Origin: Chiloscyllium plagiosum
Taxonomy: Eukaryota
Direction of reading: 5' to 3'
Assembly: GCF_004010195.1 (NCBI RefSeq)
Contig: NC_057717.1
Location: forward strand, 106,391,127 to 106,455,126
Length of the DNA stretch: 64,000 nt
The notes beneath the pieces are model-generated. The model searched no databases, was not told where the DNA came from, and saw nothing but the letters and a program-made list of their open reading frames with translations. Positions 22,019 through 62,711 of the stretch are shown here, piece after piece. Position 1 is the first letter of the stretch; the number at the start of each line of letters is the position of its first letter. A program made the translations under genes and the position numbers.

Positions 22019-22254
22019 TCATTGGTTCAATCCATTTGTAAGTGTTTCACCATGATATGGGTCAAGATTCTTTAAAGGAACATTCTGCTGGTGTTCATGC
22101 CCATTGGGGATCTGTAGATTTTTGTTGGGTTTTGCATTCTGTACATTATAATGTCCTCTTTTATGGGCACTGCATTTCCAATACAAGGCCATCAGTGCAA
22201 TTATCAACAATACTGCTGCTATCACCACCACGACTGGTATTATCCATCTTAAAC
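22019..22254 (-). CDS. ICAM/VCAM-like gene D, terminal exon (transmembrane + cytoplasmic tail)
   Basis: Pyrimidine tract + catag|. GLRWIIPVVVVIAAVLLIIALMALYW (TM), then KCSAHKRGHYNV...GLNQ-stop; basic+Tyr juxtamembrane motif as in ICAM/VCAM tails. Confidence 0.92.
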
Positions 22255-23139
22255 CTATGAAAAGAAAGAAAGAAAAGATACACAAATCATCAACAGTCCA
22301 GGGAAATATATTGATTGCAACATGCCCGAGGATTTCCAAAATCTGTGGATTATAAACAAAGGGTATTTTCCGATGGAATGTCCTGTGTGCTTTATTCAGC
22401 TCTTTCATGGCTGTTTCCTGCTTGTATTCTTCACCTTCTTTCATTCTTCCCACATCACACACCACTCCTTGGCAGTCTGCCCTAAACTCACTGTCAATTC
22501 CCTATTTACATTCCGCAGGAATTTCACACTGGTAAGTAAATTTAATGTAATGTTCCACACGTGATGTCAAGATTTCATTTAAGGTGGTTCAGAATTTCCA
22601 GAAATCTTAATTATTCTCTGTCTCTTACATTGCGAATAGCATGATGAAATCTCCTGTCTATCTTTAAGTTTCCAACCCTAATATTCATTTGTATTTTCCC
22701 CGAGACACTGATTTGAGCTGCTGTGTTTGCAGTACCTCCAGCTTGTACTTTTTCACTGCTTTTCCCTGTTGCTCCCATCACAATGAGAAGTGAACCCCAG
22801 AGACATGTGCTGCACTCACTGATCTGCCAAAACTCTGCACCATGGAGTCGCAATGTGTGGATTCACAGCCATGAAGTGTCCCACTCCTCCTACCTTGGAG
22901 TTATTTCCCCAGGCAGGTGGGGCAAACACAGAGCAGGAGGACGGCGCTTCTACACACAAAGAGGAACACATGCAAGAGAGTCTCACTCTGAACCACCCGT
23001 ACCCAATGTACCAAAGGCCAGTTACAGAGCAGCATTGTTAGAGGCAGGCAACAGTTTATCCATTTGTCCCATTGTCAGGAAGGGTGCAGTAAAACAGGAG
23101 CCCAAACTAGTAATGACAATAGAAATATTAGATTCTGAC

Positions 23140-23448
23140 CTTTGACCCTGAGGTCCACTTCCTTCTCATCAACTCCATGTTGATTGGTAGCTCTACATTT
23201 ATAAATTCCTTGATGCTCTGAGGTTACGTACGGAATGTGCAGAAACCCAGAGGGACCAATCTCAATGTTGCTGCCGTTACAGGGGTTTACCCACTCTAAT
23301 GTAGGTGAGGGTCTTCCATTGGACTTACAGCTTATTGTAATTTCATCACCTTTAGTAACTTCTACTGGAATGCTTGACATGGTTGTGTTATTTCCTGATA
23401 TGGTTTTGTTATTTACCGATATGGTCATGATTGTGTCTCGTGGTTTAT
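23140..23448 (-). CDS. ICAM/VCAM-like gene D, Ig domain 6 exon
   Basis: cttccag| and |gtcaga; 309 nt, open. YKPRDT...ITISCKSNGRPSPTLEW...HQGIYKCRATNQHG...LRVK. Confidence 0.92.
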
Positions 23449-23805
23449 CTGGAAGAGAGAAGAAAAAGATGAAAATAGGCAGGTAGACCCACAGGATCAC
23501 TGATACAGCTCCCCAACAGGGCTTCAATTAACAGGATGTCCAAACCTCCCACATACCGTGCTGTCATCTATCTTCCAACAGTCATTTCAGAACAGGTGAA
23601 TCTCTGCAGTCGTGTTATAGCCTGGGACATACTTTCAGTCATCTGTTATTATGAGGTATATTCACAGTGAAATGCAGTCATTGTGTAAATACTAATTCAG
23701 GTTTACAGCTACTGGGTCTGACGGTCTAAGAATATCGCACTATGTTCACAGTGCCCAGAATAAAAGTAGAATCAAAGATTCAATTTCCTGGATTCTGATA
23801 CTCAC

Positions 23806-24051
23806 ACAAAATAGTTGCATTTAGAGATGAGGTTTTAGATCCGTGCTCATTTTTGACCGTGCACACGTACAGTCCCCCATGCTGCATTTGAACAGATGGG
23901 ATGTAGAGTATTTCTCTGCTTTCCATTCTCCCATCTTTGATCCAGACCCTCTGGGGATCTGGGTTCCCTTGCCCATGACATGTTAAATTCTGTGATACCC
24001 CTTCAATCCAGTTTTCTTGAGCTTTAAAGATCTCTGCTTTTGCTGGTGCAT
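23806..24051 (-). CDS. ICAM/VCAM-like gene D, Ig domain 5 exon
   Basis: ttttacag| and |gtgagt; 246 nt, open. YAP...NLTCHGQGNPDPQRVWIKDG...HGGLYVCTVKNEHGS. Confidence 0.92.
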
Positions 24052-30305: not shown

Positions 30306-30593
30306 ACAGGACATGGAGGGTTTCAATCTGTTGTTTTATAACAGGGCTTGTCATTGACTGATCTTGAAGTTTCAGTTCAGCTTCACAGATATACTGCTGT
30401 CCATCCAGCTTAGCTTGAGCTTCTACTGTATGAGAGATAGTGAGCCCAGTACTGCTTGATCCATTCACTAATGTGTCATTTCCTTTCTTCAGTCTGAGTT
30501 CAAGATCCCCTGAGACATTTAACACAAGGCATGTAATATTAACCAGATTTCCTTCCTGGCTGGTTGGTACTTGGATTTCAGGGGAAGAGAAAG
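30306..30593 (-). CDS. ICAM/VCAM-like gene D, Ig domain 4 exon
   Basis: tttttag| and |gtaagt; 288 nt, phase 1-1, open. AFSSPEIQVPTSQEGNLVNITCLV...LDGQQYICEAELKL...TLHVL. Confidence 0.9.
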
Positions 30594-31361
30594 CTAAAAA
30601 TAATAGAACGATACTGTTAGAAACATTGTTGTATCTAGTAGTCCCTCAGTGTGAGGTTAATAACAATGAAACAAAGGCAGATTGCATTTCGTGCTCTTGC
30701 TCATCCTCTGCTTCATTGCTGTATCAGGGAGATGTACAAAGCCCTACATCATCTTTCCATGTTCCTTCAGTATCTGCAGTATCATAGTCAACATTCAATC
30801 CTGACCCAAACTCACCAAAAATGTATTCTGCTCGTTTCTGTTTGTAGAATCCTGAAATCTGTATTTATTTAAATGCAGATTTATTTATTACCGCCTGTTT
30901 CTTCCACACGGTATATTCCTGATTGGTGTATGTTTTTGCACCCCTGCAGTTTTTAGGGTACATTGGTTGTTTAAACATTTAAACATTCTCTTGTGATCCT
31001 GGAATACTAAGTGTGAGTAACACTCACCTATGAGCAGCGCATACAATGTCAATCACATTATCTCAGGATCTCGGAATACCTCGAGTCATTAAGACTTTCT
31101 CAGAATGCTTTTCATTGACAGAGGGTCATATAGAATATATGGCACAGAAACAGACCATTCCAACTAATTAGCCAATGTTTATGCTTTACTCAACCAAGTG
31201 TCTGAGTATACAAACATTTCCACAAGCTTCCCAATTTGTTACTCAATGAAAAGGATTTTATTACTGAAAGTGGTGGAAATGCTGACATGTTGTATTGTTG
31301 ACAGTGATGAACTATCAGAATGTTGTCTGATTTTGAACTCCCCCACAACCAGAATTCTTAC

Positions 31362-31655
31362 CATACACCTCAATGAAAGCACTATTATTCTTTGGGGGAA
31401 TTGATGGATATTTCTCAAAATCGGCCATACAGACGACTTCCATCAGACCAGATTCCTGTGGTGTCCATGCTGCTGTTATTCGGACAGTGTTGGAATTTGG
31501 CCTTGTGGTATCTGAGTTCAGTTCCACACCATCCTGAAACCATCTTACTCTCATCTTTTCAGCAGGATAGACATTTGAGACCTCACATGTTAATGTGACC
31601 TCTTGCTTCACTTCTTTGGGTCTTTTGTCCAGAATTATAGGCTGATCCATGAAAG
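31362..31655 (-). CDS. ICAM/VCAM-like gene D, Ig domain 3 exon
   Basis: ttacag| and |gtaaga; 294 nt, phase 1-1, open. AFMDQP...VTLTCEVSNVYPAEKMRVRWFQDG...VVCMADF...IEVY. Confidence 0.9.
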
Positions 31656-31789
31656 CTGTAATTCAGACAAGAAATTCACTTCATTTTAATTTGCCGCAGT
31701 GTGTTTCTGTTTTTAATGGACAGAGTGGAAAACTGACCAGTGTAGGTATTAGATAATACACCACCCCAGGAATATATCACATTCACTCA

Positions 31790-32106
31790 TAGTCAAAAAA
31801 CTGGAGGCGCCTCCAGGCCATAGTGCACTTTGAGAAGGAACTGTTAATGCCAATCATGGTGTGCAATTGACAAATTTGTCTGATATTTTTGACAATTATC
31901 CACAGGATAAGGGCATTACAGGCTGGACCAGCACTTATTACCCATCTAGTCATAAAACTGGAGTCATCTGCAGGAGGCCATAGTGCACTTTGAGAAGTAA
32001 CTGTTAATGCCAATCGTGGTGTGCAATTGACAAATTTGTCTGATATTTTTGACAATTATCCACAGGATAAGGGCATTACAGGCTGGACCAGCACTTATTA
32101 CCCATC
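31790..32106. repeat. Tandem duplication of ~160 bp
   Basis: 31790-31946 approximately equals 31947-32106. Confidence 0.9.
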
Positions 32107-32566
32107 CCTAATTGCCCAGAGGACAGTTCAGAATCAACCACGTTGCTGTAGGTCTGGGCCAGACAAGGTAAGGATGGCAGTTTCCTTCCCTGAAGGACAT
32201 TAGTGAACCAGATCAGTTTGTACACCAATCAGCAATGGATTCATGGTCATCATTAGGCTGTTAATTCCAGATTTTTTTTTGTTGGATTCTGATTCCTCTA
32301 CCGCAGGATTCAAATCTAGGTCATGGGAACATTATCTAGATCTCTGGATTAACGGTCCAGGAATAATATGTTTAGGCCAGCACCTCAATTCAAAACCACA
32401 AAACAGCTCAGCTATTTTAGTTTTAAATTAATTCTTGCTACTTTTCAACTATTAAGGCCTTTGACCATCGTGTATGTCAGTTTCGTGTATGTCAGTCACT
32501 CTGAGCAGTACAGGCTGATGCACTCCTGATTTACCTTCGCTTTGATCTTTACTTGCATCTGTCTAG

Positions 32567-33295
32567 AATATCCTTCTTAAGGGGGAGGGTGAGCAGCTAG
32601 AGGTCATGGTACACATCCATACCAGTGACATAGCTCGGAAAAGGGATGAGGACCTGAAAAGTGAACATAGGGAGTTAGTTTGGAATCTAAAAGGCAGAAT
32701 GAGCAGAGTAGTAATCTCAGGATTGCTACCAGTGCCACGGGCTAGTGAGGCTAGGAACAGAGAGCGAGTGCAGATGAACATGTGCCTGCAGGGCTGGTGG
32801 AGGAGGGAGGGCTTCAGATATTTGGGTCATTGAGATACCTTCTGGGGAAGGTGAGATCTGTACAAGGAGGACGGGTTGCACCTAAACTGAAGGGGCACCA
32901 GTATCCTAGGCAGGAGGTTGGTTAGAGCTCTGGGGAGGGCTTAACTAGATTGGCAGAAGGATGACAACTGGAGTTACGGACCAGAGGATGAGGTAGCTGG
33001 TGAACAGGCAAATACAGTGTGCAGAGAGTCTGTGAGGAAGGATAAACAGTTGATCGGGCAAAGTTGCAGTCAGTGTGATGGGTTGACATGTGTCTAATTT
33101 AATACAAGAAGTATCAGGAATTATGATGGTGAACTTAGACTATGGATTCGTACTTGGAGCTACAATGTTGTGGCCATTATGGAGATTTGGATATCACAGG
33201 AGCAGGAATGTTTGCTGGATGTTCTAGGGTTTAGATATTTCAAAAGGAATAGAGAGGCAGGTCAAAGAGGTGGGGAAATGGCATTGCTAATCAGG
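32567..33295 (+). mobile_element. CR1 LINE (ORF1 end, APE start), cut by a gap
   Basis: VVISGLLPVPRASEARN; WISQEQECLLDVLGFRYFKRNRE...ALLIR. Confidence 0.9.
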
Positions 33296-33795
33296 NNNNN
33301 NNNNNNNNNNNNNNNNNNNNNNNNNNNNNNNNNNNNNNNNNNNNNNNNNNNNNNNNNNNNNNNNNNNNNNNNNNNNNNNNNNNNNNNNNNNNNNNNNNNN
33401 NNNNNNNNNNNNNNNNNNNNNNNNNNNNNNNNNNNNNNNNNNNNNNNNNNNNNNNNNNNNNNNNNNNNNNNNNNNNNNNNNNNNNNNNNNNNNNNNNNNN
33501 NNNNNNNNNNNNNNNNNNNNNNNNNNNNNNNNNNNNNNNNNNNNNNNNNNNNNNNNNNNNNNNNNNNNNNNNNNNNNNNNNNNNNNNNNNNNNNNNNNNN
33601 NNNNNNNNNNNNNNNNNNNNNNNNNNNNNNNNNNNNNNNNNNNNNNNNNNNNNNNNNNNNNNNNNNNNNNNNNNNNNNNNNNNNNNNNNNNNNNNNNNNN
33701 NNNNNNNNNNNNNNNNNNNNNNNNNNNNNNNNNNNNNNNNNNNNNNNNNNNNNNNNNNNNNNNNNNNNNNNNNNNNNNNNNNNNNNNNNNNNNNN
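33296..33795. other. Assembly gap, exactly 500 N
   Basis: Counted directly; the other gaps (14100-14597, 16760-17096, 24819-25620, 58123-59003) have irregular sizes. Confidence 0.98.
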
Positions 33796-34627
33796 GGACT
33801 TTGTTAAGTGTTTATAGGAAAACATCCTTATTCAACATATGCATGTATCTATTAGGGAAAGAGCAATATTTGATCTCCTGTTAGGAAACAAAGCAAGTGA
33901 CTGAGGTGTCAGTGGAGGAGCACTTTGAAGCAAGTGATCATAATTTTATTTGTCTTAAAATAATTATAAAAAAGTATAGAACTGATCAAAAAATTAAAGC
34001 TCTAAGTTAGGGCAAGGCCAATGTTGATGGTATTATGTTCCTGTTCGTGCAAAGGGCAAGGCTGGTAGGTGTAGGGAATGCTGGATGACTAGAGAAATTG
34101 AGTCTCTGGTTAGAAAAAGGAGGTATATGTCGGGTATAGACAGCTGGGATTGAGTGAATCCCTAGACTAGTATCAGGGCAGTAGGAGGGAAATCAGGAAG
34201 GCAAAAAAGGGACAAGTGATAGCTTTGGCAAATGTCTTGGAGAGAGTTAACATTATAGAAGAGGATGTGCTGGAGGTCTTAAAATTCAAATAGGCAGATA
34301 AATCTGTCAGACCTGATCAAGTGTATCACAGAACTTTGTGGGAAGCCACGGCACAGATTACAGGGATAGAATCCCTACAGTCTGGATATTTGTATCATCA
34401 ATAGGGTGGGCACTGGAAGACTGGAGTTTGGCTAATGTGGTGACATTATTTAAGAATAGGATGTAAGGAAAAAGTGGGGAATTATAGACTGATGAGCCTT
34501 ACGTCAGTGGGGGGGCAAGTTATTGGAGGAGATTCTGAGGAACAGGATCTACATGCATTTGGAAAAGCAAAGACTGATTAGGGATCGACAACATGGCTTG
34601 GTGCATGGGAAATAGTGTCTCACTAAT
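33796..34627 (+). mobile_element. CR1 LINE fragment (subfamily of 15075/43816)
   Basis: DFVKC...DLLLGNK...; ggctggtaggtgtagggaatgctggatgact shared with ~44250. Confidence 0.85.
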
Positions 34628-36880
34628 TACATAGAACATAGATCAGTACAGCACAGTACAGGCCCTTCAGCCCTCGATGTTGTGCTGACCTGGAAGATCA
34701 AACTAACCTACATTCCCTTCATTCCACTATTATCCATGTGCCTATCCAAGAGTCGCTTAGATGTCCCGAATGTATCTGACACTACTACCACTGCTGGCAG
34801 TGCATTCTACACACACACCACTCTCTGTGTAAAGAACTACCTCTGACATCTCCTCTAAACCTTCCTCCAAACACCTTACAATTATGTCCTTCATGATATT
34901 CATTTCCGCTCTAGAAAAAATTCTTGGACTATTCACTCTATCTATACCTCTCATCATCTTGTACACCTCTGTCAAGTCATCTCTCATCCTTCTTTGCTCC
35001 AATGAGAAAAACCCTTGCTCCCTCAACCTTTCTTCATAAGACATGCTCTCCAGTCCAGGCAGCATCCTGGTAAATCTTCTCTGCACTCTCTATAAAGCTT
35101 CCGATAACGAGGCAACCAGAACTGAACACAATATTCCAAGTGTGGTCTAACCAGGGCTCTACAGAGCTGCAGCACAACTTTACAGCTCTTAAACTCAATT
35201 CCCCTGCTAATGAAAGGCAACATACCGTGTAACTTCTTAACAACCCTATCAATTTGGGTGACAAATATGAGGGATCTATGGACATGGACCCCAAGATTGC
35301 TCTGTTCCTCTACACTGCCAAGAATCCTGCCTTTAATCCTATATTTTGTATTCAAATTCAAACTTCCAAAATGAATCATTTCACATTTTTCAGGTTGAAC
35401 TCCATCTGCCACTTCTCAGCCCAGCTCTGCATCCTGTCAATGTCCCGTTGCAACTACACCAGCCCTCCAAACTATCAACCACTCCACAAACGGTCATGCC
35501 ATTGTCAAACTTATTAACCCACCCTTCTACTTCCTCACCAAGTCATTTCTAAAAATCACAAAGAGCAGAGGCCACAGAACAGATCCCTATGGAACATCAC
35601 TGGTCACCGAGCTCCAGGCTGAATACTTTCCATCTACTACCACCCTCTGTCCTCTATTGGCCAGCCAATTCTGTGTCCAGACAGGAAATATCCCTGTAAC
35701 CTATGCTTCCTTACTTTCTGAATGCCCCTACCATGAGGTACCTTATCAAATGCTTTGCTAAAATCCATTTACATCATATCCATTACTCTACCTTCATCAA
35801 TGTTTTTTGTCATATCCTTCAACAAAGCTTGTGAGGCATGACCCGCAACTCACAAAGCCATGCTATCTCTAATGAAACTATGGTTTTCCAAGTAATCATC
35901 AGTCCTGTCTCTCAGAATCTCTCCAATAATTTGCCCACTACAGACATAAGACTGACTGGTCTGTAATTCCCAGAATTATCCCTATTCGCTTTTGTAAACA
36001 AGGGAATAACATTTGCCACCCTCCAATCATCTGCTACTACTCCAGTGGACAGTGAGGACATAGATCATCACCAAAGGCACAGCAATCTCTTCCCTTGCTC
36101 CCTGTAGTAATCTTAGGTATATCCCATCTGGCCCATCATTTCAGCACATCCTCTTTCTTAACATCAAACTGTTGAAGCATATCAGCCTGCTTTAAGCTGT
36201 CCTCACAAAGGTAAAAGTCCCTCTCAGTAGTGATTACTGAAGCAAAGTAATCATGAAGGACCTCCCCTACCTCCTCCGACTCCAGGCACAAGGTCCCTCC
36301 ACTATCCCTGATCTACTTTGACTCTGGCCATCCTCTTGTTCCTCACATAAGTGTAGAATTCCTTAGGGTTTTCCTTAATCCAATCGCTAAAGCATTTTCA
36401 TGCCCCCATCTAGCTCTCATAAATCCATTCTTCAGTTCTTTCCTGGCTATCTCGTAACTCTCTGGAGCCCTGTCTGATCCTTGCCTCCTCAACCTTAAGT
36501 AAGCTTCATTATTTCTCTCGATTAGATCTTCCACATTTCTTGTCATCCAAGGTTCCTTCACCCTACCATCCCTTTCTTGCCTCAGTGGGACAAACCTGTC
36601 CAGCATTATCAGCAAGTGCTCCCTAAACAACCTCCACATTTCTGTTGTGCATTTTTCTGTTCCCAATTTAGACACAGCAGTTCCAGGGTAATAGTACTGT
36701 AATTCCCCCTCTCCTAGTTAAATACTTTCCCAAACCATCTAATCCTATCCCTCTCCATGACGATAGTAAAAGTTTCTCACTATCATCGAAATGCTCTCCC
36801 ACCAAGAGATTTGACACCTGACCTGGTTCCTAGCCAACTACCAAATCCAATATGGCCTCCCCTCTAGCTGGCCTACCTAC
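34628..36880 (-). mobile_element. CR1 LINE ORF2 to 3' end
   Basis: LVRPHLEYCVQFW, QRRFTRMLPGL, (ttctatg)n-like tail. Confidence 0.92.
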
Positions 36881-36882
36881 AC

Positions 36883-40400: not shown

Positions 40401-40772
40401 TAGAGGTTTATAAAATCCTAAGTGGCATAGATAGGGTGAATAGCCAAGGTCTTTTTCCCTGGGTAGGGGTGTCCAAAACTAGAGGGCATAGGTTTAAGGT
40501 GAAAGAGGAAAGATTTAAAAAGGACCTGAGGGATCACTTTTTCAAGCAGATGGTGGTGCGTGCATGGAACAAGCTGCCAGAGGAAACGATGGAGGTGGAT
40601 ACAATTCCAACATTTAAAAGGCTTCTGGATGGATATATGAATAGGAAGGGATCAGAGGAGATATGGACAAAATGGTGGCAAATGGGATTAGGTCAGATTG
40701 GGATGTCTAGTTGGTGAGGATGAGTGGACTGGAGGGTCTTTTTTCATGCTGTATGAATCTATGACTCTATGA
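37459..40772 (+). mobile_element. CR1 LINE ORF2 segments with nested PLE fragments (38967-39083, ~39420-39665)
   Basis: [26 protein letters not shown], tail tctatgactctatga. Confidence 0.92.
39538..39565 (+). ncRNA. Minimal hammerhead ribozyme motif (second PLE family)
   Basis: CTGATGA-A-GGGC TTTT GCCC-GAAA-CGTC. Confidence 0.7.
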
Positions 40773-42210
40773 GTTCCCAAGATAATTAAGAAGATTTTTA
40801 AAATATAAACACTTGAATCATGTTAGATTCCAAGGCTATGGGCTAACTGCCAGATAATGGATAAGAATAAATAGCTGTCTGATGATCGACATGGACACAA
40901 TGGGTCCAGTAGCCCCTTTCCCTGCTGTACAACTCTATGGTTCTAGATGGATGTTAAGTGGTGATGAGCTCAACAGGAACGGATAATTTTTTTGTTATGG
41001 TTCTTCGGGAAAAAACATTTTGGTTGTTGGCTAGAAACCTGTGGTGAATTCAGAAAAGCAAATAAGCCTGGATGGCAAAATGACCACAGTTTAGATAATT
41101 TTAATGTGAGGAGTATAATAAATAGGACAGACCAGCTGAGGGCAGTATGATACCATACATGGCTTAAAGAGGGTCAGGAAGGATTTCTGGCTCCAGAACT
41201 TTCCGACACGATAGAGAGGGATTAATCAGAAAACTGGGTAGCAATTGTGGTTGAAGAAACAATCATATTTTTAAGGAGGGATGACAAGTTGGAAGCATCA
41301 TCATATGAAGCCACATGGATTGCACTAAGTACCATAAAAAGGGCAGCTAAACTCTTGGGAATGTACAACAGACTTCGAGAGGGAGACAGAAGAACAAAGA
41401 TGTTGGCAAACTCGCAGAAGTGCAAAAACAACAAAGTAGTAATAGTTTGTTTTTTTTTACCTACCCCAATATTAACTGAAATAGTTTTAATGTGAAAAGA
41501 ATGGAGGGAACTGAATTCATTGAGTGCATTCATAGAGTCATAGAGATGTACAGCATGGAAACAGATCCTTCGGTCAAACCCGTCCATGCTGACCTGTTCA
41601 GAGGCATTCTTTCAATATTTGCTCTGGGAGTTGTAGTTTTTAAAATCAAAAACAATACTGTGCTCACTACAGAGATCACAGATACAGTTGATTAAAGCAA
41701 GTAAATGTGAATTGTCGAAGAAAAGATTCTTTGAAGTAGTCATGCTGAAGAATCCACACAAAATACACTGGGGTAAGTCCCCCAGCCCACTCCGCTCTGT
41801 GCTATGACAACAGGTTGAAAGGCAACAAGGCTGGCAATATAATGGGCAAGGTATCAGAATGGGAGGCCAAAATCCTCCTGTTACCATGACATATTGTCAG
41901 TAGCAGGAGAGGGCAGCCATTTAAATGGCTCATTTAAAGACCACTTCCTGCCCTCAGGCTTCCTGCAGCTTCCAGGGGAGGGTGGCTCTTCTTAAATGGT
42001 ACTGCATGGTCCATGCATTGAACTGCACATGTGTGGACTTTGGAAGTTGCTGTCTGAATACTCTTCAATGAAGGTAAGCTCTGATTACCTCATTTCTACG
42101 AAATGTGTCAATATGTTTTATTTTGTTTTTTGTTTTTACCTCTGGAAGTTACTCTGAATACGAAATAGATTCAGTGCCAATGTATTGACTGTGATTTGTT
42201 TACTTGGCAG

Positions 42211-42483
42211 TAAATGTGGCAGGACTTGACATTTGGATCGACGTAACCCCTCAAGTTCTGGAATTTGGAGACTCATTGAAGGCAAACTGCAGTACATCAT
42301 GTGTGGATTCAAACCTATTAATTGTCTTGGAATATAAATCAGGGCTAAGTCCTCAGAGAAAACGTGAAAGTACATGGATATCAGACTTCTTCCCAAATGT
42401 CACAGCATGGGATATTTCTGTCCCTTGTGTTGTGAGATGTAAGAATGAACACAACTCAGCCAAGAAAGTGGTCCCTGTTTACA
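42211..42483 (+). CDS. ICAM/VCAM-like gene D, N-terminal Ig domain (D1) exon
   Basis: ttggcag| acceptor and |gtaagt donor; 273 nt, phase 1-1, open. VNVAGLDIWIDVTPQVLEFGDSLKANCSTSC...IVLEYKSG...WDISVPCVVRC...VY shows the CxxxC...CxxxC four-cysteine ICAM N-terminal domain pattern. Confidence 0.9.
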
Positions 42484-42764
42484 GTAAGTGAAAATTATTG
42501 TAACAAAATAATTGTGAGTGATAGAGATTCCCTACTGGCTCAGTAAATATCTATTTTCCGTGGTTTAAATACTGGAATGCCGAAATAAATTAAGGCAAAT
42601 GGGATGTTTTAACACACATTGAAACTCAGCTAAGTGATATAGCCTAGTCATCTGCTGAAACCAGTAACCACACCAATTCCCTTAGAATAAGTTTGTTTCC
42701 ATCAGGTTTCACCTTCTTCCTGCCTTGTGTCCATTTTAAGCCTTTGCATTCCACAATTACGATA

Positions 42765-42955
42765 TGGAGTTGCCAGTGTTGGACTGGGATGGACAATGTC
42801 AGAAGTCGATTGACACCAGGTTATAGTCCAACAGGTTTATTTGAAATCACAAGCTTTTGGGGTGTTGCCCCTTCACTTCATCTGATGAAGCAGCAATGCT
42901 CCAAAAGCTTGTGGGTTTAAATAAACCTGTTGGACTATAACCTGGTGTCGTCTGA
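42765..42955. mobile_element. PLE-derived short inverted-repeat insertion
   Basis: acaccaggttatagtccaacaggtttattt ... aaataaacctgttggactataacctggtgt. Confidence 0.8.
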
Positions 42956-43349
42956 CATTCTGCAATTAGTTATTTTCCTCAGAGTAGGAACTTCAAAATG
43001 AAATTCATTATCTCAAAAAACAACTACTGCCTGCTTTAAAACAAACACACAAATCCTTCACTCTCTATCTCTGTAATCTCCTCCAGCCCAATAAACCTCT
43101 GATCTCTGCACTGTTCTAATTCAGGCATTTGGTTCATCTCGAATTTTATCACCACTATTGCAAACTGTGCCTTCAATTGCCAAGTTGTTAGGCTCTGGAA
43201 TCACTCCCTTAACCTCAATCTTTCTCTCTCTCCTCCTGTAAGGCACTCTCTAGATCATACCCTCTTTCAATCATCTGCCCCAATACCTCCTCATGTAACT
43301 TGGTGTTAACCATTCATGGGGAAATTGAAGCTCCAGTATTTATAGTCAA

Positions 43350-46300
43350 TGTAACAGTAGTGATTGTAACAAGGTCAGCCAAATGGACACTATACAATAT
43401 AAGTTCACTGGCTGGGGCTGTTAATCAGGAGTATTCCGTTCATTCTGAGAGCTGGCTCTGAGAGATCCAGATCAGTGTCAAAGACTATCCACATGTAAAT
43501 AAAGGGTGACTCCACGATGGCTTACTGGCTTATGTGAAGTAATTTCAGTGGCAATGAGAAGAAATCCTGAAGAAATTCACTCACAATAGTTATCTCTGAA
43601 TTGGCATAAGCATTTCTGATATTGTGTCATTATTTAGGAAGCTTGACTCATTTGATCCTGCCATCAAAGACTGGGCCCTGTATGCGGAAAGAATGCATTA
43701 TTGCTTTCTGGGCAAATGATATTGGGGCAGATGAAAAGCAATGAGTAATACTCTTGACAGTTCGTAGATCTACAGCTTTTTTGGTTATTAGGTACCTAAC
43801 TTTTCTTGAAGCATCAGATTTTAACTTTCCAAACATCACTTGGGACTGCCATCGTGTTAAAGGTTTAGATGGAGAGGAATTTCTTAAGCGTGTACAAGAC
43901 AATTTTCTGATTCAGTTTGTGGACGTACCTACTAGAGAAGGTGTAAAACTTGACCTACTCTTGGGAAATAAGACAGAGCAGGTGACTGAGGTGTCAGTGG
44001 GGGAGACTTTGGGGCCAGTGAACATAATTCTTTTCGCTTTAAAATAGTGATGGAAAAGGATAGACCAGATCTAAAAGTTGAAGTTCTAAATTGGAGAAAG
44101 GCCAATTTTGACGACATTAGGCAAGAACTTTCGAAAGCTGATTGGAGGCAGATGTTCACAGGTAAAGGGACAGCTGGAAAATGGGAAGCCTTCAGAAATG
44201 AGATAACAAGAATCCAGAGAAAGTATATTCCTGTCAGGGTGAAAGAGAAGGCTGGTAGGTATAGGGAATGCTGGATGACTAAAGAAATTTAGGGTTTGGT
44301 TAAGAAAAAGAAGGAAGCATATGTCAGGTATAGACAGGAGAGATCGAGTGAATCCTTAGAAGAGTATAAAGGAAGTAGGAATATACTTAAGAGGAAATCA
44401 GGAGGGCAAAACGGGGACATGAGATAGCTTTGGCATATAGAATTAAGGAGAATCCAAAGGGCTTTTACAAATATATTAAGGACAAAAGGGTAACCAGGGA
44501 GAGAATAGGGCCCCTCAAAGATCAGCAAGGCGGCTTTTGTGTGGAGCCACAGAAAATGGGGAGATACTAAATGAATACTTTGCACCAGTATTTACTGTGG
44601 AAAAGGATATGGAAAATATAGACTTTAGGGAAAAGGATGGTGACATCGTGAAAAATGTCCAGATTACAGAGGAGGAAGTGTTGGATGCCTTGAAATGGTT
44701 AAAGGTGGATTAATCCCCAGGACCTGATCAGGTGTACCTGAGAACACTGTGGGAAGCTAGAGAAGTCATTGCTGAGCCTCTTGCTGAGATATTTGTATCA
44801 TCGATAGTCACAGGTGAGGTGCCGGAAGACTGGAGGTTGGCTAAAGTGGTGCCATTGTTTAAGAAGGGCAGTAAAGACAAGCCAGGGAACTATAGACCAG
44901 TGAGCCTGACCTCTGTATTGGACAAGTTCCTGGAGAGAATCCTGAGGGACAGGATGTACATGTATTTGGAAAGGCAAGGACTGATTTGGGATAGTCAACA
45001 TGGCTTTGTGCGTGGGAAATCATATCTCACAACTTGATTGAGTTTTTTGAAGAGGTAACAAAGAAGATTGATGAGGGCAGAGCAGTAGATGTGATCTCTA
45101 TGGACTTCAGTAAGGCGTTCGACAAAGTTCCACGTGGGACACTGATTAGCAAGGTTAGATCTCATGGAATACAGGGAGAACTAGCCATTTGAATACAGAA
45201 CTGGCTCAAAGCTGGAAGACAGAGGGTGGAAGAGGAGGGTTGTTTTTCAGACTGGAGGCCTGTGACCAGTGGAGTGCCACAAGGATTGGTGCTGGGCCCT
45301 CTACTTTTTGTCATTTACATAAATGATTTGGATGCAAGCATAAAAGGTACAGTTAGAAAGTTTGCAGATGACACCAAAATTGGAGGTGTAGTGGACAGTG
45401 AAGAGGGTTACCTCAGATTACAACAGGATCTGGACCAGATGGGCCAATGGAATGAGAAGTGGCAGATGGAGTTTAATTCAGATAAATGTGAGGTGCTGCA
45501 TTTTGGGAAAGCAAATCTTAGCAGGACTTATACTTATAAAGATTTACAAAATTATGAGGGGCATAGATAGGATAAATAGACAAAGTCTTTTCCCTGGGGT
45601 TGGGGAGTCCAGAACTCGAGGGCATAGGTTTAGGGTGAGAGGGGAAAGATATAAAGGAGACTTAAGGGGCAACGTTTTCACGCAGAGGGTGGTACCTGTA
45701 TGGAATGAGCTGCCAGAGGATGTGGAGGCTGGTACAATTGCAACATCTAAGAGGCATTTGGATCTGTATCAGGATTTTTGACTAGTTAAGATGACTGGCA
45801 GAGGCTTGTGACTTTGGTTAATCCTTAATGAGATGCTGAGAGACCATTTGGTCTGTGGGATTAATGATGTGAGCATGCAAAAACACTTAGTAACTGAAGC
45901 TCAGCTGGAGTTTAAACAAGCAAAACCAATGGCTTTATCATTGGAAAATGCAGTAAGCGGAGTACCTAAGTTGCAAGGTATTCTGATGGAAATGGCACCT
46001 TTGCCAGTCCAATTGAACATGTGAGTGAAGGCAGTTACAAAGCATCACTCAAGTCATATCCTAACAGCTGACACCACAGCAAAACCCCAAAACAAACTCA
46101 AGCCTTTGCCAAACAGTTAAACTTTTCTCGAGGCTCCAGGCTGAGCCATTGTAGTTGTTATTGGTATGCATACCTGAGAGAGCAAAAGAATCCCACTGGG
46201 TCTGAATTAAGTAACAGAGCTCATAGGCCAATACCTAGAAGTATGCACACCAAGGGATGTCCACCTACATCTGATTTGGAACCATTAAATTGGTTAGCAA

Positions 46301-49300
46301 CATTCAAAACAAAACCAATCAAAATAAATGTCTGGTTAAATGGTCACCTGGTTCTTTTGGAGGTCGATACTAGCACAGCTATTTTAATGTTTGCAGAGCC
46401 GGTCTTTAACAAAATTCACTCTCGACTCCGGGTTTGCACAAGACCTCAGTTTGACTGAGAGCCTTTCCCAGAGAACCTTTACAGATAAAAGTTACAACTT
46501 TGTTTCCGGTCTCTTATAAGAAGAAGCTGGTTCAGTTACCACTGATTGTAGTGAAAGGGTCAGGCCAAGCTTGATGGGCAAAATTAGTTAAGAAAGACTC
46601 AACTTGACTGACTCAACATTTTTCAGTTAGAAATGGCTGTGTCAGTGAAATAAGTCCTAATTAAATACCCGGATGTTTATCAGGAAGGTCTAGGTAGTAT
46701 CAAAGGAGCCAAGGCCTCCTTGCATGAGGACCAGGAAGCAATTCCATGATTCTGCAAGGCTTGCCCAGTGCTATTTGCCTTACTTGCAAAAGTAGAGGCA
46801 GAAATGAGGAGGTTGCAAAACAAAGTAATCATCAAACCAATCCAATTTGTGGACTGGGCAGCCCAGTAATAGCTGAAGCCCAGTAATTGTGAAGCTTGAC
46901 AGATTGGTTTACGTTTGTGGGTGAACATTTTAAACAAATGGTGAACTGCGTTTAGTAGCAGGATAAATACCCAATCCCTCACACTAAGGATTTATATGCA
47001 AAGCCAGCAGGGGTGAACATGGACATGAGCCATGCGTATTTGCAAGTGAGGTCAGACGACGACTGTCAGAAGCATGTTACAGTTATTATCCATAATGGTT
47101 TGTACCAATGAATGACACTGCCATTTGGGGTATCATCAGCCGGTGCCATTTCTCAGTGGACGATGGAGAACATTTTAAAGGGTTTACCCAAATCCCCATC
47201 TACCAAGACGATTTGCTAATAAAAGGGAAGACTAATAAGAAGCACTTTGAGAACTTGGATATAGTCCTTAGACATTTCTCCCAGGTGGGCGTATGCCTTG
47301 GAAGGGAAGAATGTTGGTTTCAGGCATCCCAAGTGACCTCGTGGGCAAGACCGGGTAACACTTGGAAGCTGAAGTGAGGGTGATCAAAGATGCCCCAGCT
47401 CCCAACTCAGTATCAGAACTTAGGTCTTTCCTTGGGCTGGTGAACTATTCCGGATAGTTCATACATAATGTGGCCTCCATCCTAGCACCTTTGAAATCAA
47501 CTCTTTAAAAAGAGTTAGCCTTGGAAATGGTCATGCAGCCAAGCCATAGTTTTCAGGGAAGTCAAAAAACAGCTATCATCCTGTAAGTCATATTAAGATT
47601 CTAAACGGGATCTGGTACTGACATGCGATGCCCTGATGGAGAATGAAGGTTTGGCAGTGATGTTTGGAGTCAGGATGTTCCACCAATACTTTGACAGACA
47701 TAAATTTGTAATAATAACAGACCACAAACCCTTCTAGGTCTACTTAAAGAGGACAAGATGTGGAGGTGGTGGTGTTGGACTGGGGAGGAATACGTTCAAA
47801 ATTGCACAACACCAGGTTGTAGTCCCAACAGATTTATTTGGATGTACTTGCTTTCAGAGTGCTGCCCCTTATAGCTACAAATTATGATCCTGCCCCACTA
47901 GTTACCTGCTTAAAGAGGACAAGATGTGGAGGTGTCAGTATTGGACTGGGAGGACTACATTAAAAATCACACAACACCAGTTTATAGTCCAATAGGGTTA
48001 TTTGGATGTACTTGCTTTCAGAGTGCTGCCCCTTATAGCTACAAATTATGATCCTGCCCCACTAGTTACCTGAAAGCTAGTACTTCCAAATAAAGCTGTT
48101 GGACTATAAACTGGTGTTGTGTGATTTTTAACTGAAGAGGACAAGGCAGTGCTGCTCACAGCTTCACACTGAATTCAGCGGTGGGCTCTAGTTATAAGTC
48201 TGTACAATTACAGGTTGGAACACTGTCTGGGAGGCCAAGGAGCAAATGTAGTTGCACTGAACCGCCTCCTGCTGGAAGGTACACCACCGGTGGGACCACT
48301 ACAAGAAGAGTCCACTCTGGTATTAAACTTTTTGGACACACTTCCAGTCACAGCTGACAATATCAGACTCTGGACAAAGATCCAGTCCTGGCAAAACTGA
48401 ACCAGCTGGTGGTGATGGGGGAGGAAGCCAAAGGGCCATCACAATCAGAATTGAAATGTTTCTGGACCTAGAGAGATCAGATCACAGTCGAGGACAGCAT
48501 TTTATTATGGGGAGCAAGAGTGGTTGTTCGTAGCAAGGGTCAGCACCAAGATACTGACTGAACTCCACAGGGGTGTACAAGGGTTTCCAAAATGAAGACA
48601 TTGATGAGAAGTTATTGGATTGGAGGATTGGATACAGACAAAGCTGCATTGGTGGGGCAATACACACAAGGACAAAAATCACCAAAAGCACTCCCCACAT
48701 TTGTGGAAATGGTTGGGTAAACACTGGATTCGGTTACACTTTGACTATGCAGCTCCTTTCATGGGCTCAATGTCCTTAGTCTTTTTGGATATCCACTCAA
48801 AATGGCTGGATATGTGTAGAGTTAATTTGTCTTACACATGGATGATGACAGAGTACTGCAAATATTTTACAATACGTGGACTGTTCGAGATGTTGGTCAC
48901 AGATAACAGACTATCATTTCAAGCAGGGGACTTGACTATTTCCTAAAGCCGAATGATATGCATCACATAAGACAGCTCTGAGCCATTCCATCATCCAATG
49001 GTCGGGCAGAAAAACCATTTCAAATTTTGTAGGCAGGCTAAAAGAAATAGCCTACAGCTTCACTCGATACCAAACTGTCCCAGTTCCTGTTTGACTATCG
49101 ACCCATCCCTCATGCAACTACAGGGATAGCTCCAGCAGAGTTGCTAATGGGTAGAAGACTCCACAACAGGTTAAACCTGATCTTCCTAGTCTTGAGGGGA
49201 GGGTGAAATGGCATCAGAAACATCAATGCTGGACACAATGCTCCACTAAATGAGAGAGACAGTTTACTTTAGGGCTCAAAGTTTGGTGTAGGAACCGTGG

Positions 49301-50046
49301 GAATGGCCTTGAATGCGCTGGAGGCACAGTCAATGTAAGGTCAGGTCCAGTGATGTCTAAGGTTTGGATAGGTGCAACAGTCCTGAACAAGTACATGGAT
49401 CATATGAAAGCTGCAAACATTGCAGGAGCAAAATGTGCCCTGCTCTTCGCTGCCTTTCTGACTGTTCAAAAACTCATGGGGTCTCTGTCTCCGGTAAGCA
49501 TTTAAGGTACTACAGAATCTGAGGTGGATGTCACTGTCTCAATGCCTTTGCCACCTAAAGAGGAGAATAAAGAGGGAGGGATGTAATAATTGTAATGAGG
49601 TCAGCCAGGTGGACATCATAGAAACTGAAACAACTGCAGATGGTGTAAATCAGAAAAAAAATCAAAATTGCTGGAAAAGCTCAGCAAGTCTTGCAGCATC
49701 TGTGGAGAGAAATCAGAGTTAATATTTCCTGTCAAATGACCCTTCCTCAGAACAGGGAAAGGGTCACTTGACCCCAAACATTAGGTCTGATTTGTCTCCA
49801 CAGATGCTGCCTGACCTGCTGAGTTTTTCCAGCAATCTTGATTTTTGTTTCTGGGTATCATAGAATGAGTTCCCTGATTAGGCTCTTTATCTGGTCCAAT
49901 CAGGGAGCCGTGGCTGACAGGTATAAACAGGAGTGTCAGAGGTTCTGATCACTCTGAGAGCTGGCCCTGACGGAGATGGATTAGTCTCCATGTGTAAATA
50001 AAGGGTGACTTGGTGACAGGATACCGGCCTCTGTTGAAATATTTTA
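43350..50046 (+). mobile_element. Degenerate Gypsy/Ty3 LTR retrotransposon in the D1-D2 intron
   Basis: LTRs 43350-43547 and 49582-50046 (shared gtaaataaagggtgact, ctgagagctggc); PBS-like gtggcaatgag; PPT 49567-49580; gag (EMLRDHLVCGIND), protease (LEVDTSTA), RT/RNase H and integrase (HFDYAAPFMG) remnants. Confidence 0.9.
43816..45762 (+). mobile_element. CR1 LINE nested in the Gypsy gag region
   Basis: DFNFPNITW...NYRPVSLTS...GVPQG...KFADDTK. Confidence 0.93.
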
Positions 50047-50177
50047 CTAACCTTTTGTCGAATGTGTACACACACTTACATCTCTTATGTATCTGAGTAA
50101 ATGTGTGGGGAAATGGAACATGGTCCTCAGGTACACTATTTCAGTGAAACCTGTTAACTGTGATTCTCCTTTAACAG

Positions 50178-50492
50178 ATCGAGAGATAAGCATTACAGTA
50201 CTTCCTGAAGTACTGGAGATTAACAGAACATATCGTCTGGAGTGCATTGGCCCAAGAGTCTATCCAAACAACAAACTCATTCTCACATGGCTGAGAGGGA
50301 GTGAGATTGTCCAGAGAGATTCCACAGGTGAACTAGGTCTTCCGGATGAAGATAAAAGGTTGAGAAATGTCTTCAATTTCGTTGCGAGTCGATCAGATGA
50401 TGGACAGGAGTACACCTGCTTGGCTGAAGTGGACTTGGACTCTAATACCACAAAGTCAATCACAAACTCTTCTGTCACACTGCAAACTTACG
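50178..50492 (+). CDS. ICAM/VCAM-like gene D, Ig domain 2 exon
   Basis: ttaacag| and |gtgagt; 315 nt, phase 1-1, open. YRLECIGPRVYPNNKLILTWLRG...SRSDDGQEYTCLAEVDL...TLQTY is typical of ICAM/VCAM D2. Confidence 0.9.
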
Positions 50493-51226
50493 GTGAGTTC
50501 CAATTGCTCAAGATATTACAGACAAAAAAAAACTTATCTTGTATTATGGTGCAAATATCCAGTAAATGTAAATGTTTGCTTTAAGTCAGCCAGAGCATGT
50601 GCAAACCATAGTTTGACAGTGAAGGCCTACAATCATTTTGCAATCACTTTCTTTTTTACCATGCTGAGTCTTAATAATATAATTCCAAAACATATTCAAG
50701 GCCCATTCTGATTCCTGAGGCTTGAGTTTCAAACTGGGAACATTAAGTGGGGACAGAAGCTGCTACTGGCTCAGTCAGGGAATCCAGAATTGACGTGCTC
50801 TGTCCCTTCCAATACCTGGGTCATTTCCAGGTCCTAATCTCATGCCATACACTGACACAAAGCACATCATTTCCAGAATCCATAACTGAAACCAGTAGCA
50901 GCTTCTGCCCCCAGTTAATGTCACTAAGCACCTGGTGAAGATGGGAACTGACTGCTGAGCACGACCCTCAAAGGCAGTCTGCAGCAATGGGCGAGCTACT
51001 GCTTTGCAAAACTGAGAAAGCAGTAGAGAGAAGGGTTAGCAGACTTTTAGTGCAGAGAAGATGGCAATCAGCCAATACACATGAAAAACCCATTATTAAA
51101 AACTGTTCTTCCTCATTGTGGTAACCCCAACAAAGTACACCGGAATCACTAATTAATCTCCTCATGGAGCTTGTTGAGTATAAGTTCCCTTGGTAACAGG
51201 CAATGGCCTGCCGAACTGGAACTCAA

Positions 51227-52262
51227 CACCTTATGGTGTAGTGGTAGTGTCCTTACCCCTGGACCTGGCAGCCAAGGTTCTAGACCCACCTGCTCCAGAG
51301 ATGTGTAATAACATCCCTGAACTGGTTGACTAGAAAAATAGGTTAGTCCCTTCCCTCTCTCCCTACCCACGTCTCTCTTTTGATGGTTTGCATTTACCCA
51401 ACAGGCTTTGCGTGTAAATATTGAATTGGATGTTTATACTGGTGATGGCTGGTAATTGTTTTAAAAAGGCATGGTTATTTTGATGGTGGGAAGGCCGCTC
51501 AGTTGTAGGTAATAGCACTTCAGAGTAAAATAAAGTATTGCCAGAGGGTCTTGTGGTACAATGGTATAGTCTCTATCGCTGAGCCAGGAGGTCTTGGTTC
51601 ACATCCCACCTGTTCCAGAAGGTGTGCAATAACATCGATGATCAGGTTGATTAGAAAATAAGTTTAAAAAAGAAAATATTACCATTGTACATAATGGGAT
51701 TTTAATCGTAAACAATTAATTGGCTACACAAGTGAATGCTGGTGGTTGTTAGTAAAACACATAAAAGTCATAGTGATTTGGGTGGTGGTAACATCGCTCA
51801 AACGTGCATGTTAACACATCTGGGTGTTAAAAAAAAGAATAAATAAATAAATAAAACAAGACCCATGGGGGGGGGCGGATACAGTTCTTTATTTTCCCCT
51901 CCAATTCCATTTTGATTTAGTTTCTTCCTGCTTTCCCTAAATCCCCTCCTGCTCATTTTTGGTGGTTCATATTGGTCATAATGGATTTGCTTGTGAATCT
52001 CTAATTGGCTACAGGGATGTTTTTATTGGTGGTGGTTAATAGTTAAAAACAAAACATAAATGTCACAGTGATTTGGGGGTGCGATATCCTTCTGGTTGTG
52101 CGTAAGAGCATTTCTGGATACAGAAGAAGGAAAAAGGAGATAAAGGCAGAACCAGGAGACCTGGTTCAAGTCCCACCTCCACCAGAAGTGAGTCATAATA
52201 TCTCTGAACAGGTTGATGAAAATAAAAGCAGATGCAGGAGGCCCACTTATAGTGCAGTGGGA
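51227..52262 (+). mobile_element. Three short tRNA-derived SINE-like copies (~51230, ~51550, ~52150)
   Basis: tggtgtagtggtag...ggttc(aag/aca/tag)...cccacctgctccaga...aataacatc...gaacaggttga repeated. Confidence 0.6.
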
Positions 52263-53795
52263 ATAGAACTTAGAACGGTACAGCACAGAACAGACCCTTC
52301 GGCCCTTGATGTTGTGCTGACCTTTTATCCTACTTTAAGATTAAACTAACCCACATAACCTTTCATTTTACAATCATCCATGGGCTTTTCCAATGTCCCC
52401 AATGTATCTGACTTTACTACCACTGCCGGCAGTGCATTCCACACACCCACCACTCTCTGTGTAAAGAACCGACCTCTGACATCTCCCCTAAATCTTCCTC
52501 CAATCACCTTAAAATAATGCCCCACATGAAAACCATTTCCACCCTGGGAAAAAGTCTTTTGCTATTCACTCTGTCGATGCCTCTCATCATCTTGTACACC
52601 TCTATCAAGTCACCTCTCATCCTTCTTCGTTCCAATAAGAAAAGCCCTAGCTCCCTCTTCCTTTCTTCATAAGACAGCCCTCCAGTCCAGGCAGCATCCT
52701 GGTAAATCTCCTCTGCACTCTCTCTAAAGCTTCCACATCCTCCCTATAATGAGCTGACCAGAACTGAACACAATACTCGAAGTGTGGTCAATCAGGGCTT
52801 TATAGAGCTGCAGCAATACCTCATGGCTCTTAAACTCAATCACCCTTTTAATGAAAACCAATATATCATACGCCTTCTTAACAACCCTATCAACTTGGGC
52901 GGCAGTTTTGAGGGATCTATGGACATGGAACTTGGGCGGCAGTTTTGAGGGATCTATGGACATGGACCCCAAGATCCCTCTGTTCTTCCATATCAGCTTG
53001 AATCCTGCCTTTAACCCTGTATTCTGCTTTCAAATTCGACCTTCCAAAACGAATCACTTCACACTTTTCCAGGCTGAACTCCAAATGCTACTTCTCAGCC
53101 CAGCTCTGCATCCTGACAATGTCCCATTGCAACCTACAACAGCCCTCCATACTATGCACCACTCCTCCAACCTTCGAGTCATCAGCAAACTTCCTGCCCC
53201 CCCCCCTTCCACTTCTTCATCCAAGTTATTTATAAAAATCACAAAGAGCAGAGGTCCCAGAACCAATCCCTGCAGCACACCACTGGTCACTGAGCTCCAG
53301 GCTAAATACTTTCCATCAACTACCACCCTCTGTCTTCTATGGGCCAGCCAATTCTGTATCCAGACAGACAGGTTTCCCTGAGTCCCATGCCTCCTTCCTT
53401 TCTGAATGAGCCTTCCATGGGGAAACCTTATCAAATGCCCTGTTAAAATCCATAGACACCACACCCACTGCTCCACCTTCATCAATGTGTTTTGTCACAT
53501 CCTCAAAGAATTCAATAAGGTTTGTGAGGCATGACTTGCCCCTCACAAAGCCACGCTGACTATCTCTCATCAAACTATGCTTTTCTAAATAATCATAAAT
53601 CCTTTCAGAAACCTCTCTAATAATTTGACCACGACCGACATTAGACTGTCTGGTCTGTAATTCCCAGGATTATACCTATTTCCTTTCTTCAACAAGGGAA
53701 TAACATTTACCACCCTTCAATCATCTGGTACTGCTCCTGTGGACAGTGAGGATGCAAAGATCATCGCCAAAGGCACAGCAATCTCTTCCCTCACT
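52262..53795 (-). mobile_element. CR1 LINE RT to 3' end, cut by a gap
   Basis: GKSCLTNLIEFFEDVTK, SSVTSGVLQGLVLGP; same subfamily as 34628-36880. Confidence 0.92.
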
Positions 53796-54295
53796 NNNNN
53801 NNNNNNNNNNNNNNNNNNNNNNNNNNNNNNNNNNNNNNNNNNNNNNNNNNNNNNNNNNNNNNNNNNNNNNNNNNNNNNNNNNNNNNNNNNNNNNNNNNNN
53901 NNNNNNNNNNNNNNNNNNNNNNNNNNNNNNNNNNNNNNNNNNNNNNNNNNNNNNNNNNNNNNNNNNNNNNNNNNNNNNNNNNNNNNNNNNNNNNNNNNNN
54001 NNNNNNNNNNNNNNNNNNNNNNNNNNNNNNNNNNNNNNNNNNNNNNNNNNNNNNNNNNNNNNNNNNNNNNNNNNNNNNNNNNNNNNNNNNNNNNNNNNNN
54101 NNNNNNNNNNNNNNNNNNNNNNNNNNNNNNNNNNNNNNNNNNNNNNNNNNNNNNNNNNNNNNNNNNNNNNNNNNNNNNNNNNNNNNNNNNNNNNNNNNNN
54201 NNNNNNNNNNNNNNNNNNNNNNNNNNNNNNNNNNNNNNNNNNNNNNNNNNNNNNNNNNNNNNNNNNNNNNNNNNNNNNNNNNNNNNNNNNNNNNN
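53796..54295. other. Assembly gap, exactly 500 N
   Basis: Counted directly. Confidence 0.98.
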
Positions 54296-62710: not shown

Positions 62711-62711
62711 A

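Follow-up and report, generated by a model that had tools for sequence, protein, structure and literature searches.

A four-cysteine first domain (D1), one Ig domain per phase-1 exon, and a single-pass membrane segment are features of the ICAM family. The mammalian ICAM-1, ICAM-3, and ICAM-5 (PDB 7bg7/1z7z, 1t0p, and 4oi9) are similar to the shark gene considered here in having an ICAM_N first domain, but differ in the number of Ig domains, which, according to PMC10215618, is five in ICAM-1 and ICAM-3 and nine in ICAM-5, versus six here; the "5-like" label of the shark proteins is an automatic one. The biology of the gene is ordinary, with annotated orthologues in close relatives. P0018 of Chiloscyllium punctatum (668 aa) and P0017 of Hemiscyllium ocellatum (673 aa), both ICAM5-like gene models and, as far as seen, not sequenced mRNAs, carry all seven parts in order in one chain, as expected from the D1-D2-D3-D4-D5-D6-TM architecture proposed in the initial annotation of this locus. 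The long single-stretch matches of P0018 were to ICAM-5 (E 3e-23) and ICAM-1 (E 2e-21), while the best E-value in the comparison with structure chains belonged to a CEA model chain covering D5-D6 only. By title, no paper on this locus was present among the matches listed for literature on ICAM in Chiloscyllium and in sharks.

Two kinds of artefacts known from other genomes are relevant for comparison. Inversions of short contigs are common in Hi-C scaffolding, as stated in PMC6719893, and 500 N is the default gap of 3d-dna and SALSA2 according to PMC9292758. The locus resembles the cases in these papers in the short piece, the uniform 500-N joins, and the conflict with gene structure, and differs from them in being a tandem cluster of near-identical exons, where placement is doubtful besides orientation. 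Chimeric mis-annotation of adjacent genes, in which exons of neighbouring genes are fused in one public model, was attributed to thin RNA evidence in PMC12220653; in the present case, a flipped block of the assembly would be the cause.

The analysed window is a 64,000-nt stretch of the Chiloscyllium plagiosum genome (GCF_004010195.1, NC_057717.1:106,391,127–106,455,126, forward strand). It contains six N runs, with sizes of 498, 337, 802, 500, 500, and 881 bases, so that two of the six are exactly 500 N (33296–33795 and 53796–54295) and, as had been noted, differ in this from the other four. These default-size gaps flank a short block of exactly 20,000 bases (33796–53795, plus strand), a length absent from the initial annotation and found here. 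The block is oriented against the rest of the window's ICAM-like exons: the 12 ICAM-like exons and pseudo-exons outside it are all on the minus strand, and the two inside it are both on the plus strand. Its orientation is therefore at odds with the independent gene order, considering both this strand census and the one-chain orthologue models. A round block length is a mark of bin-based cutting in Hi-C scaffolding, and such a length between 500-N gaps offers a cheap flag for like errors in the same assembly.

Block-internal D1 and D2 exons are located at 42211–42483 (273 nt) and 50178–50492 (315 nt) of the plus strand, and the minus strand carries D3 (31655–31362, 294 nt), D4 (30593–30306, 288 nt), D5 (24051–23806, 246 nt), D6 (23448–23140, 309 nt), and an exon encoding TM and a long cytoplasmic tail and ending in a stop (22254–22019), confirming the reported split of the gene between two strands. 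The seven exons were said to be open and in phase 1, and indeed none has an internal stop and all six Ig exons end in phase 1; AG acceptors were found in 7/7 exons and GT donors in 6/6 Ig exons. The predicted in-frame join of D2 and D3, with TLQTY followed directly by AFMDQP, is reproduced and also occurs in P0015, P0016, P0017, and P0018. In addition, a leader (signal-peptide) exon of the block-D1 type, unnoticed before, was identified at 2462–2396 of the minus strand by its match to P0018, with whose N-terminal end it shares 20 of 22 residues (E 7e-18). It comprises 22 codons and one base, has a GT donor, ends in phase 1, and joins the block's D1 in frame. When the leader and the seven exons were joined by script, a stop-free frame of 675 aa was obtained, with identities of 626/668 to P0018, 623/673 to P0017, and 602/673 to P0015.

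In Pfam searches, D1 exceeded the ICAM_N threshold (30.9 bits; cut-off 21), D3 passed ICAM1_3_5_D2, D5 and D6 passed Ig families, and D2 and D4 gave weak Ig matches. The four cysteines of D1 are arranged as two C-x3-C pairs, each phase-1 exon encodes one Ig domain, and there is a single hydrophobic membrane segment. VCAM-1 D1 carries an aspartate-bearing IDS motif; the shark D1 has IVLEY at this place, without IDS, and a VCAM-1 identity was rejected. The IVLEY motif aligns with IALET of ICAM-3, whose glutamate we take to be the equivalent of ICAM-1 Glu34, and the glutamate position is kept, although the pairwise match is weak (E 0.039). Glu34 is given as the integrin-binding glutamate of ICAM-1 D1 in PMC10215618. 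The product is predicted from sequence to be a type I membrane protein of 675 aa with six Ig domains and ICAM-like beta-2 integrin binding via the D1 glutamate.

Comparison with related proteins linked the block's D1 to the orthologues rather than to the C. plagiosum model P0015 (ICAM5-like, 673 aa), with identities of 96% to P0018, 92% to P0017, and 44% to P0015. It groups with P0018, P0017, and P0026 (99/96) and with P0038 (95/96). The block's D2 is 96% identical to P0015, from which it differs at 4 of 104 residues, and 93% identical to P0018. D3, D4, D5, D6, and TM of the window are 100% identical to P0015, while the D5 and TM exons show 96% and 91% identity, respectively, to both P0017 and P0018. 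Overall, P0018 and P0017 share with the joined window exons the leader type, the D1 type, the six-Ig order, and the long tail (93.7% and 92.6% identity, respectively), but they are modelled as one chain, whereas the window has D1-D2 on the other strand from D3-TM and places the leader downstream of TM. Among carpet-shark proteins matching the full 77-aa tail, three of four have the block's D1 type, the exception being P0015. The pairing of D1 and tail is nevertheless not exclusive, since P0016 of the congener combines the TM type of the window with another D1, and P0046 and P0047 of Mustelus match the whole tail with D1s of 43% identity.

The initial annotation expected the gene to be divided into two by public gene models; instead, P0015 places the leader, D1, and D2 of another paralog on the D3-TM exons. 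It seems somewhat more probable that P0015 is a chimeric model skipping the flipped block, though it could represent a genuine second gene. If a chimera, it would mislead expression counts, the design of antibodies and primers, and shark ICAM trees. No protein of at least 159 aa carrying the block's D1 was found under the C. plagiosum name (two matches among 29 candidates, both from relatives), and 24 matches of D1 to 50%-identity representatives, among which a leader-bearing transcript fragment was sought, included none above 56% identity. The locus is thus of use for curation, as it provides an expressed D1 type for which this search gave no protein under the C. plagiosum name.

Of the 24 sequencing runs listed as matching D1, none is RNA by its record, and four were aligned to the window. 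D1 contigs of runs X11 and X13 have the exact exon limits with no differing letters and continue on both sides in letters other than those of the flanking introns, indicating that they are spliced. The D3 contig of X11 likewise shows exact exon limits and non-intronic flanks, and D3 contigs of both X11 and X13 differ from the D3 of the window at four letters. Four other letters were also seen there in X5, the depth of which was 18–20 over D3 versus 7.5–12 in the block, depth not being equal to copy number. Other D3 copies or alleles therefore exist, to one of which the block's D2 may be spliced. The raw single-cell run X22 gave no reads on the window from the roughly 6% of it that was sampled, which carries no weight as a test. 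The strand-switch joint from 50492 (plus) to 31655 (minus) was not found among the best 15 of 2,293 joints, which were mostly repeats; similarly, neither gap was bridged, in either arrangement, by a contig among the best 24 of 163,234 pieces, and no adjacency across the gaps among the best 18 of 4,869 rows of the loose-end table, again mostly repeats.

All four gap edges carry CR1 elements. The left gap cuts a 5'-truncated B/C-like CR1 comprising the ORF1 end and the endonuclease start (32574–33295, plus strand) and is followed by an old A-type fragment that starts at the end of the endonuclease region (33796–34630, plus strand). A C/B-type CR1 extending from the reverse-transcriptase part to the 3' tail is cut by the right gap (52263–53795, minus strand), on the other side of which a short A-type reverse-transcriptase fragment runs into the gap (54296–54358, minus strand; over 63 nt, it matches A-type copies at 82–86%). 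Identities are 72% to a B-type copy and 61% to an A-type one for the element that ends at 33295, 75% to A and 66% to B for that starting at 33796, and 87% to C, 75% to B, and 67–68% to A for that at 53795. The claim that the CR1 at 33295 resembles the one at 53795 more than the one at 33796 is borne out by these values, and the strand fits too; a random cut would hit such a CR1 on the needed strand in about 6–9% of the window. However, the left join as assembled likewise keeps CR1 sequence in order on a single strand, with about 260 nt missing versus about 1,130 nt for the flipped join. A search for a target duplication linking the CR1 halves across the flipped join gave at best an 8-mer, located 27 bases from the tail and no better than chance; a control element had none either.

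The 500-N gaps, the 20,000-base block, the strand census, and the one-chain relatives make scaffolding mis-orientation, as initially suggested, the most likely explanation. The orientation of the block is probably a Hi-C scaffolding error, possibly combined with a wrong place, and the true order of the gene, on a single strand, is likely leader-D1-D2-D3-D4-D5-D6-TM. The scaffolder would have cut out the 20,000-base piece, at a Hi-C bin edge as the uniform 500-N joins and round length suggest, and reinserted it reversed and possibly misplaced; the orientation may have been lost since a 20-kb piece gives little Hi-C orientation signal. The block's D2 would then splice to the D3 of the window or to a near-identical copy. 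Most likely, the inversion is not in the animal. A real inversion, fixed or polymorphic, that arose by recombination of opposite CR1 copies and broke the gene in the sequenced animal is very improbable. CR1 does occur on both sides of both gaps, and the switches from B/C to A at the left gap and from A to C at the right one look at first sight like reciprocal products. However, when placed on one reference copy, the crossover at the left gap must be 0–260 nt past the endonuclease landmark, and that at the right gap would need to be both above about +1,340 and below about +1,130, which is impossible; also, the two CR1 subfamilies are just 61–68% alike; highly similar inverted copies with one shared crossover position are not seen in the sequence outside the gaps. 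Both breakpoints, moreover, lie within the uniform gaps that bound the block of round length, and contigs of two runs have D1 spliced on both sides. It is hardly credible that there are two divergent incomplete genes, a plus-strand one with D3-TM beyond 64000 and a minus-strand one with its front end elsewhere, given that no plus-strand leader lies upstream of D1 inside the block, no further plus-strand Ig exon is present in 50493–64000, and all 12 other exons are on the minus strand.

Flipping was claimed to restore an intact gene, but the matching leader at 2462–2396, the only one in the 64-kb window (none in the block and none in 54296–64000), sits beyond the TM exon in the present assembly, so that a simple flip would leave it on the wrong side; therefore, a flip alone may not restore the locus. 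An in-place flip may suffice, another copy of the leader then lying beyond 64000 or in sequence missing from the assembly. About as likely, the true place of the block is after the leader at 2462 and before another D3-TM copy, collapsed or unplaced. Alternatively, the misassembled block could be part of a distinct paralog situated to the left of the window, following the leader at 2462 and having its own downstream exons, in which case D3-TM of the window would belong to the leader-D1-D2 of P0015, and this model would be correct. This is consistent with the in-phase fit of the leader to D1, with the 274 letters preceding D1 in the X11 contig, equal by length to 67 coding bases of the leader plus 207 bases up to a repeat starting near 2668, with the D1 of another type in P0016, and with the several D3 versions in reads. 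It is nonetheless unlikely in view of the CR1 subfamily match of 33295 and 53795, and because the zebra shark pairs the leader type of P0015 with a different TM (P0025) and the block's D1 type with the long tail (P0026).

The left part of the window contains a second paralog cassette (7165–5976, minus strand), with an intact leader (7165–7099), a D1-like exon with one stop (6514–6244), and a D1 fragment (6098–5976); its D1 is 87% identical to that of P0016. In the exon scan of the window, no D2 was found between this cassette and the leader at 2462. One could hypothesise, as an improbable reading, that the cluster is a row of alternative leader-D1 cassettes (7165–6244; 2462 with the block's D1) spliced onto shared or homogenised D2-TM, a variable-first-exon design like that of clustered protocadherins or UGT1A. 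If true, such a design would diversify the integrin-binding domain of shark ICAM, and the scrambled assembly would reflect the repeated design. The lack of a D2 between the two leaders would fit this reading, as would the labelling of P0016 and P0018 of the congener as isoforms X2 and X1, with identical D3-D4 under different D1s; against it, D2, D6, and the tails of these two proteins differ by few residues, as in separate genes. For a STAT-type site upstream of the leader, identity with the promoter element of human ICAM-1 found no confirmation, and the motif count (three found versus 1.5 expected) is near chance. The minus-strand pseudo-exons of further paralogs between 5976 and 20140, also unnoticed in the initial annotation, include decayed copies, with stops and frameshifts, of D5 (20140–19927), of D6 (14909–13589), which is interrupted by an insertion bearing a 15-base target duplication, and of a short-tail TM exon (12728–12517).

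Seven open exons of an ICAM-like gene were confirmed at the positions proposed in the initial annotation, with those of the Ig domains D1 (42211–42483) and D2 (50178–50492) on the plus strand, and those of D3 (31655–31362), D4 (30593–30306), D5 (24051–23806), D6 (23448–23140) and the transmembrane/tail region (TM, 22254–22019) on the minus strand. All seven have an AG acceptor, and D1 to D6 also have a GT donor and end in phase 1. Of the six runs of N in the window (498, 337, 802, 500, 500 and 881 bases), the two 500-N gaps bound a block of exactly 20,000 bases (33796–53795) carrying D1 and D2. The window belongs to a tandem ICAM-like cluster, in which 12 of 12 ICAM-like exons and pseudo-exons outside the block are on the minus strand, and both of those inside it are on the plus strand. 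In Pfam, D1 and D3 scored above threshold for ICAM_N and ICAM1_3_5_D2, respectively, D2 and D4 gave weak Ig matches, and the glutamate of D1 pairs with the ICAM-3 glutamate in a weak pairwise match.

A database search with D2 recovered 54 proteins among 193 candidates, every named one being from a shark or ray; these are gene models. In P0018 (C. punctatum) and P0017 (Hemiscyllium ocellatum), whose D1 is 96% and 92% identical to that of the block, D1 to D6 and a long tail occur in one chain. A scripted join of the leader (signal-peptide) exon at 2462 with the seven exons yielded a stop-free protein of 675 aa, with 93.7% identity to P0018 and 92.6% to P0017. On a D1 tree of 18 rows (two window exons and 16 of the 54 proteins, mainly of carpet sharks), the D1 of the block clusters with P0018, P0017, zebra shark P0026 (99/96) and Mustelus P0038 (95/96). 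The full 77-aa tail was matched by four carpet-shark proteins, three of which carry the D1 type of the block; this pairing is not exclusive, as P0016 (C. punctatum) combines a shortened tail of the same type with a different D1, and Mustelus P0046 and P0047 have distant D1s yet match the tail over its full length. Across sharks, identity to the D2 of the block is 73–96% and that of most D1 types 30–60% (P0001–P0054), and several of these models contain repeated D1–D2 units. Judging from domain type and conserved D1 residues, the protein would be ICAM-like in its working, integrin binding being a prediction; it differs from ICAM-5 in domain count and from VCAM-1 in the D1 motif. A literature search, judged by title, found no publication on this locus.

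An assembly error most likely hides a leader-D1-D2-D3-D4-D5-D6-TM gene, an ordinary artefact with a consequence for curation. Scaffolding tools may cut at bin edges, and on this basis the exact length of 20,000 bases would reflect such cuts. A passage in PMC9292758 gives uniform 500-N gaps as the default of 3d-dna and SALSA2, and one in PMC6719893 describes short pieces as often inverted because their Hi-C weight is similar in both orientations. The CR1 retroelement ending at 33295 is B/C-like (72% versus 61% to A), that at 33796 A-like (75% versus 66%) and that at 53795 C/B-like (87% and 75% versus 67–68%), which bears out the proposed resemblance of the first to the last. When flipped, the join yields a single colinear CR1 lacking about 1,130 nt. 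The left join as it now stands likewise makes a colinear element, lacking about 260 nt, but its subfamily switches. Since a random cut would fall in a B/C CR1 on the needed strand in 6–9% of the window, the match backs the flipped join by about ten to one at best, and no target duplication confirming this CR1 was found. A real inversion is highly improbable: a CR1–CR1 crossover was rejected because the left breakpoint must lie 0–260 nt past the endonuclease landmark, and that on the right would have to be both past about +1,340 and short of about +1,130. Two divergent genes, as the present strands would have it, are scarcely credible.

The public C. plagiosum model P0015, named ICAM5-like, is 100% identical to D3, D4, D5, D6 and TM of the window, but its front end differs, with a leader and D1 of another type (D1 44%) and a D2 differing at 4 of 104 residues. 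In a D1 search covering proteins of 159–2000 aa, two of 29 candidates were listed, P0018 and P0017. Public annotation therefore did not split the gene, contrary to what had been expected; it seems to have left out the exons of the block and borrowed an upstream front end. P0015 is rather likely a chimera, because its leader type is paired with a different TM in zebra shark P0025, although it may instead represent a genuine second gene. That P0015 is correct and the block has distinct downstream exons of its own is unlikely.

The original reading of a mis-oriented block thus stands as a likely assembly error, but flipping alone leaves the leader unexplained, the sole one of the right type within the window, intact and in phase with D1, being at 2462–2396 on the minus strand, 20 kb beyond the TM exon. 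A second leader copy might lie in unassembled sequence or beyond 64000; about as plausibly, though short of even chances, the block might follow leader 2462, with a second D3–TM copy collapsed or placed elsewhere. Both options give nearly the same protein.

Four of 24 listed sequencing runs were compared over 30540–50539. Contigs of runs X11 and X13 cover D1 at its exact limits with zero differences, and their further letters (274 before and 65 after in X11, 201 and 39 in X13) are not intron sequence; they behave as spliced RNA, the records not being certain on RNA. The 274 letters equal 67 leader coding bases (2462–2396) plus 207 bases to the next repeat, a match that is only suggestive of a tie to this leader. 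An X11 contig also coincides with the exact limits of D3 and extends beyond them by 35 letters upstream. We infer the D2–D3 join, since none of the 15 joints listed, out of 2,293, was a strand switch. The D3 contigs and the window disagree at about four letters, including a change (V73I) also present in P0016, P0017 and P0018, and X5 depth, which is not a copy number, is about twice as high over D3 as over the block; together these suggest more than one D3.

Immediately upstream of D3, 31790–32106 is a tandem repeat of a 159-base unit in two copies 94–98% alike. Two decayed copies of one element, 68–76% alike, lie at 46175–49184 (plus) and 60025–62703 (minus), in opposite orientation as presently assembled; by eye, their frames resemble a gypsy-type polymerase. 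Elsewhere in the cluster, decayed exons for D5, D6 and a short-tail TM (20140–12517), a second-type leader (7165–7099), a D1-like exon with a stop (6514–6244) and a D1 fragment are on the minus strand. An insertion of roughly 1 kb, with a clean target duplication of 15 bases, interrupts the decayed D6 (13589–14909); because this insertion extends across the 498-N gap, it confirms the join there. The second-type leader and D1 (7165–6244) have no D2 before the next leader; this D1 is free of stops in P0016 and also in P0061, an unnamed protein of 121 aa that runs on into the same intron sequence. Just downstream of leader 2462, 1–583 and 1550–2132 are 100% identical over at least 583 bases (period 1,549), explicable by a young LTR-like element, by tandem duplication or by duplication in the assembly. 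STAT-type 9-mers number 3 in the window versus 1.5 expected. About 85–95 bases upstream of the ATG of this leader lies a palindromic STAT-type site (2545–2555), an 11-mer that may be identical to the interferon-gamma element in the promoter of human ICAM-1.
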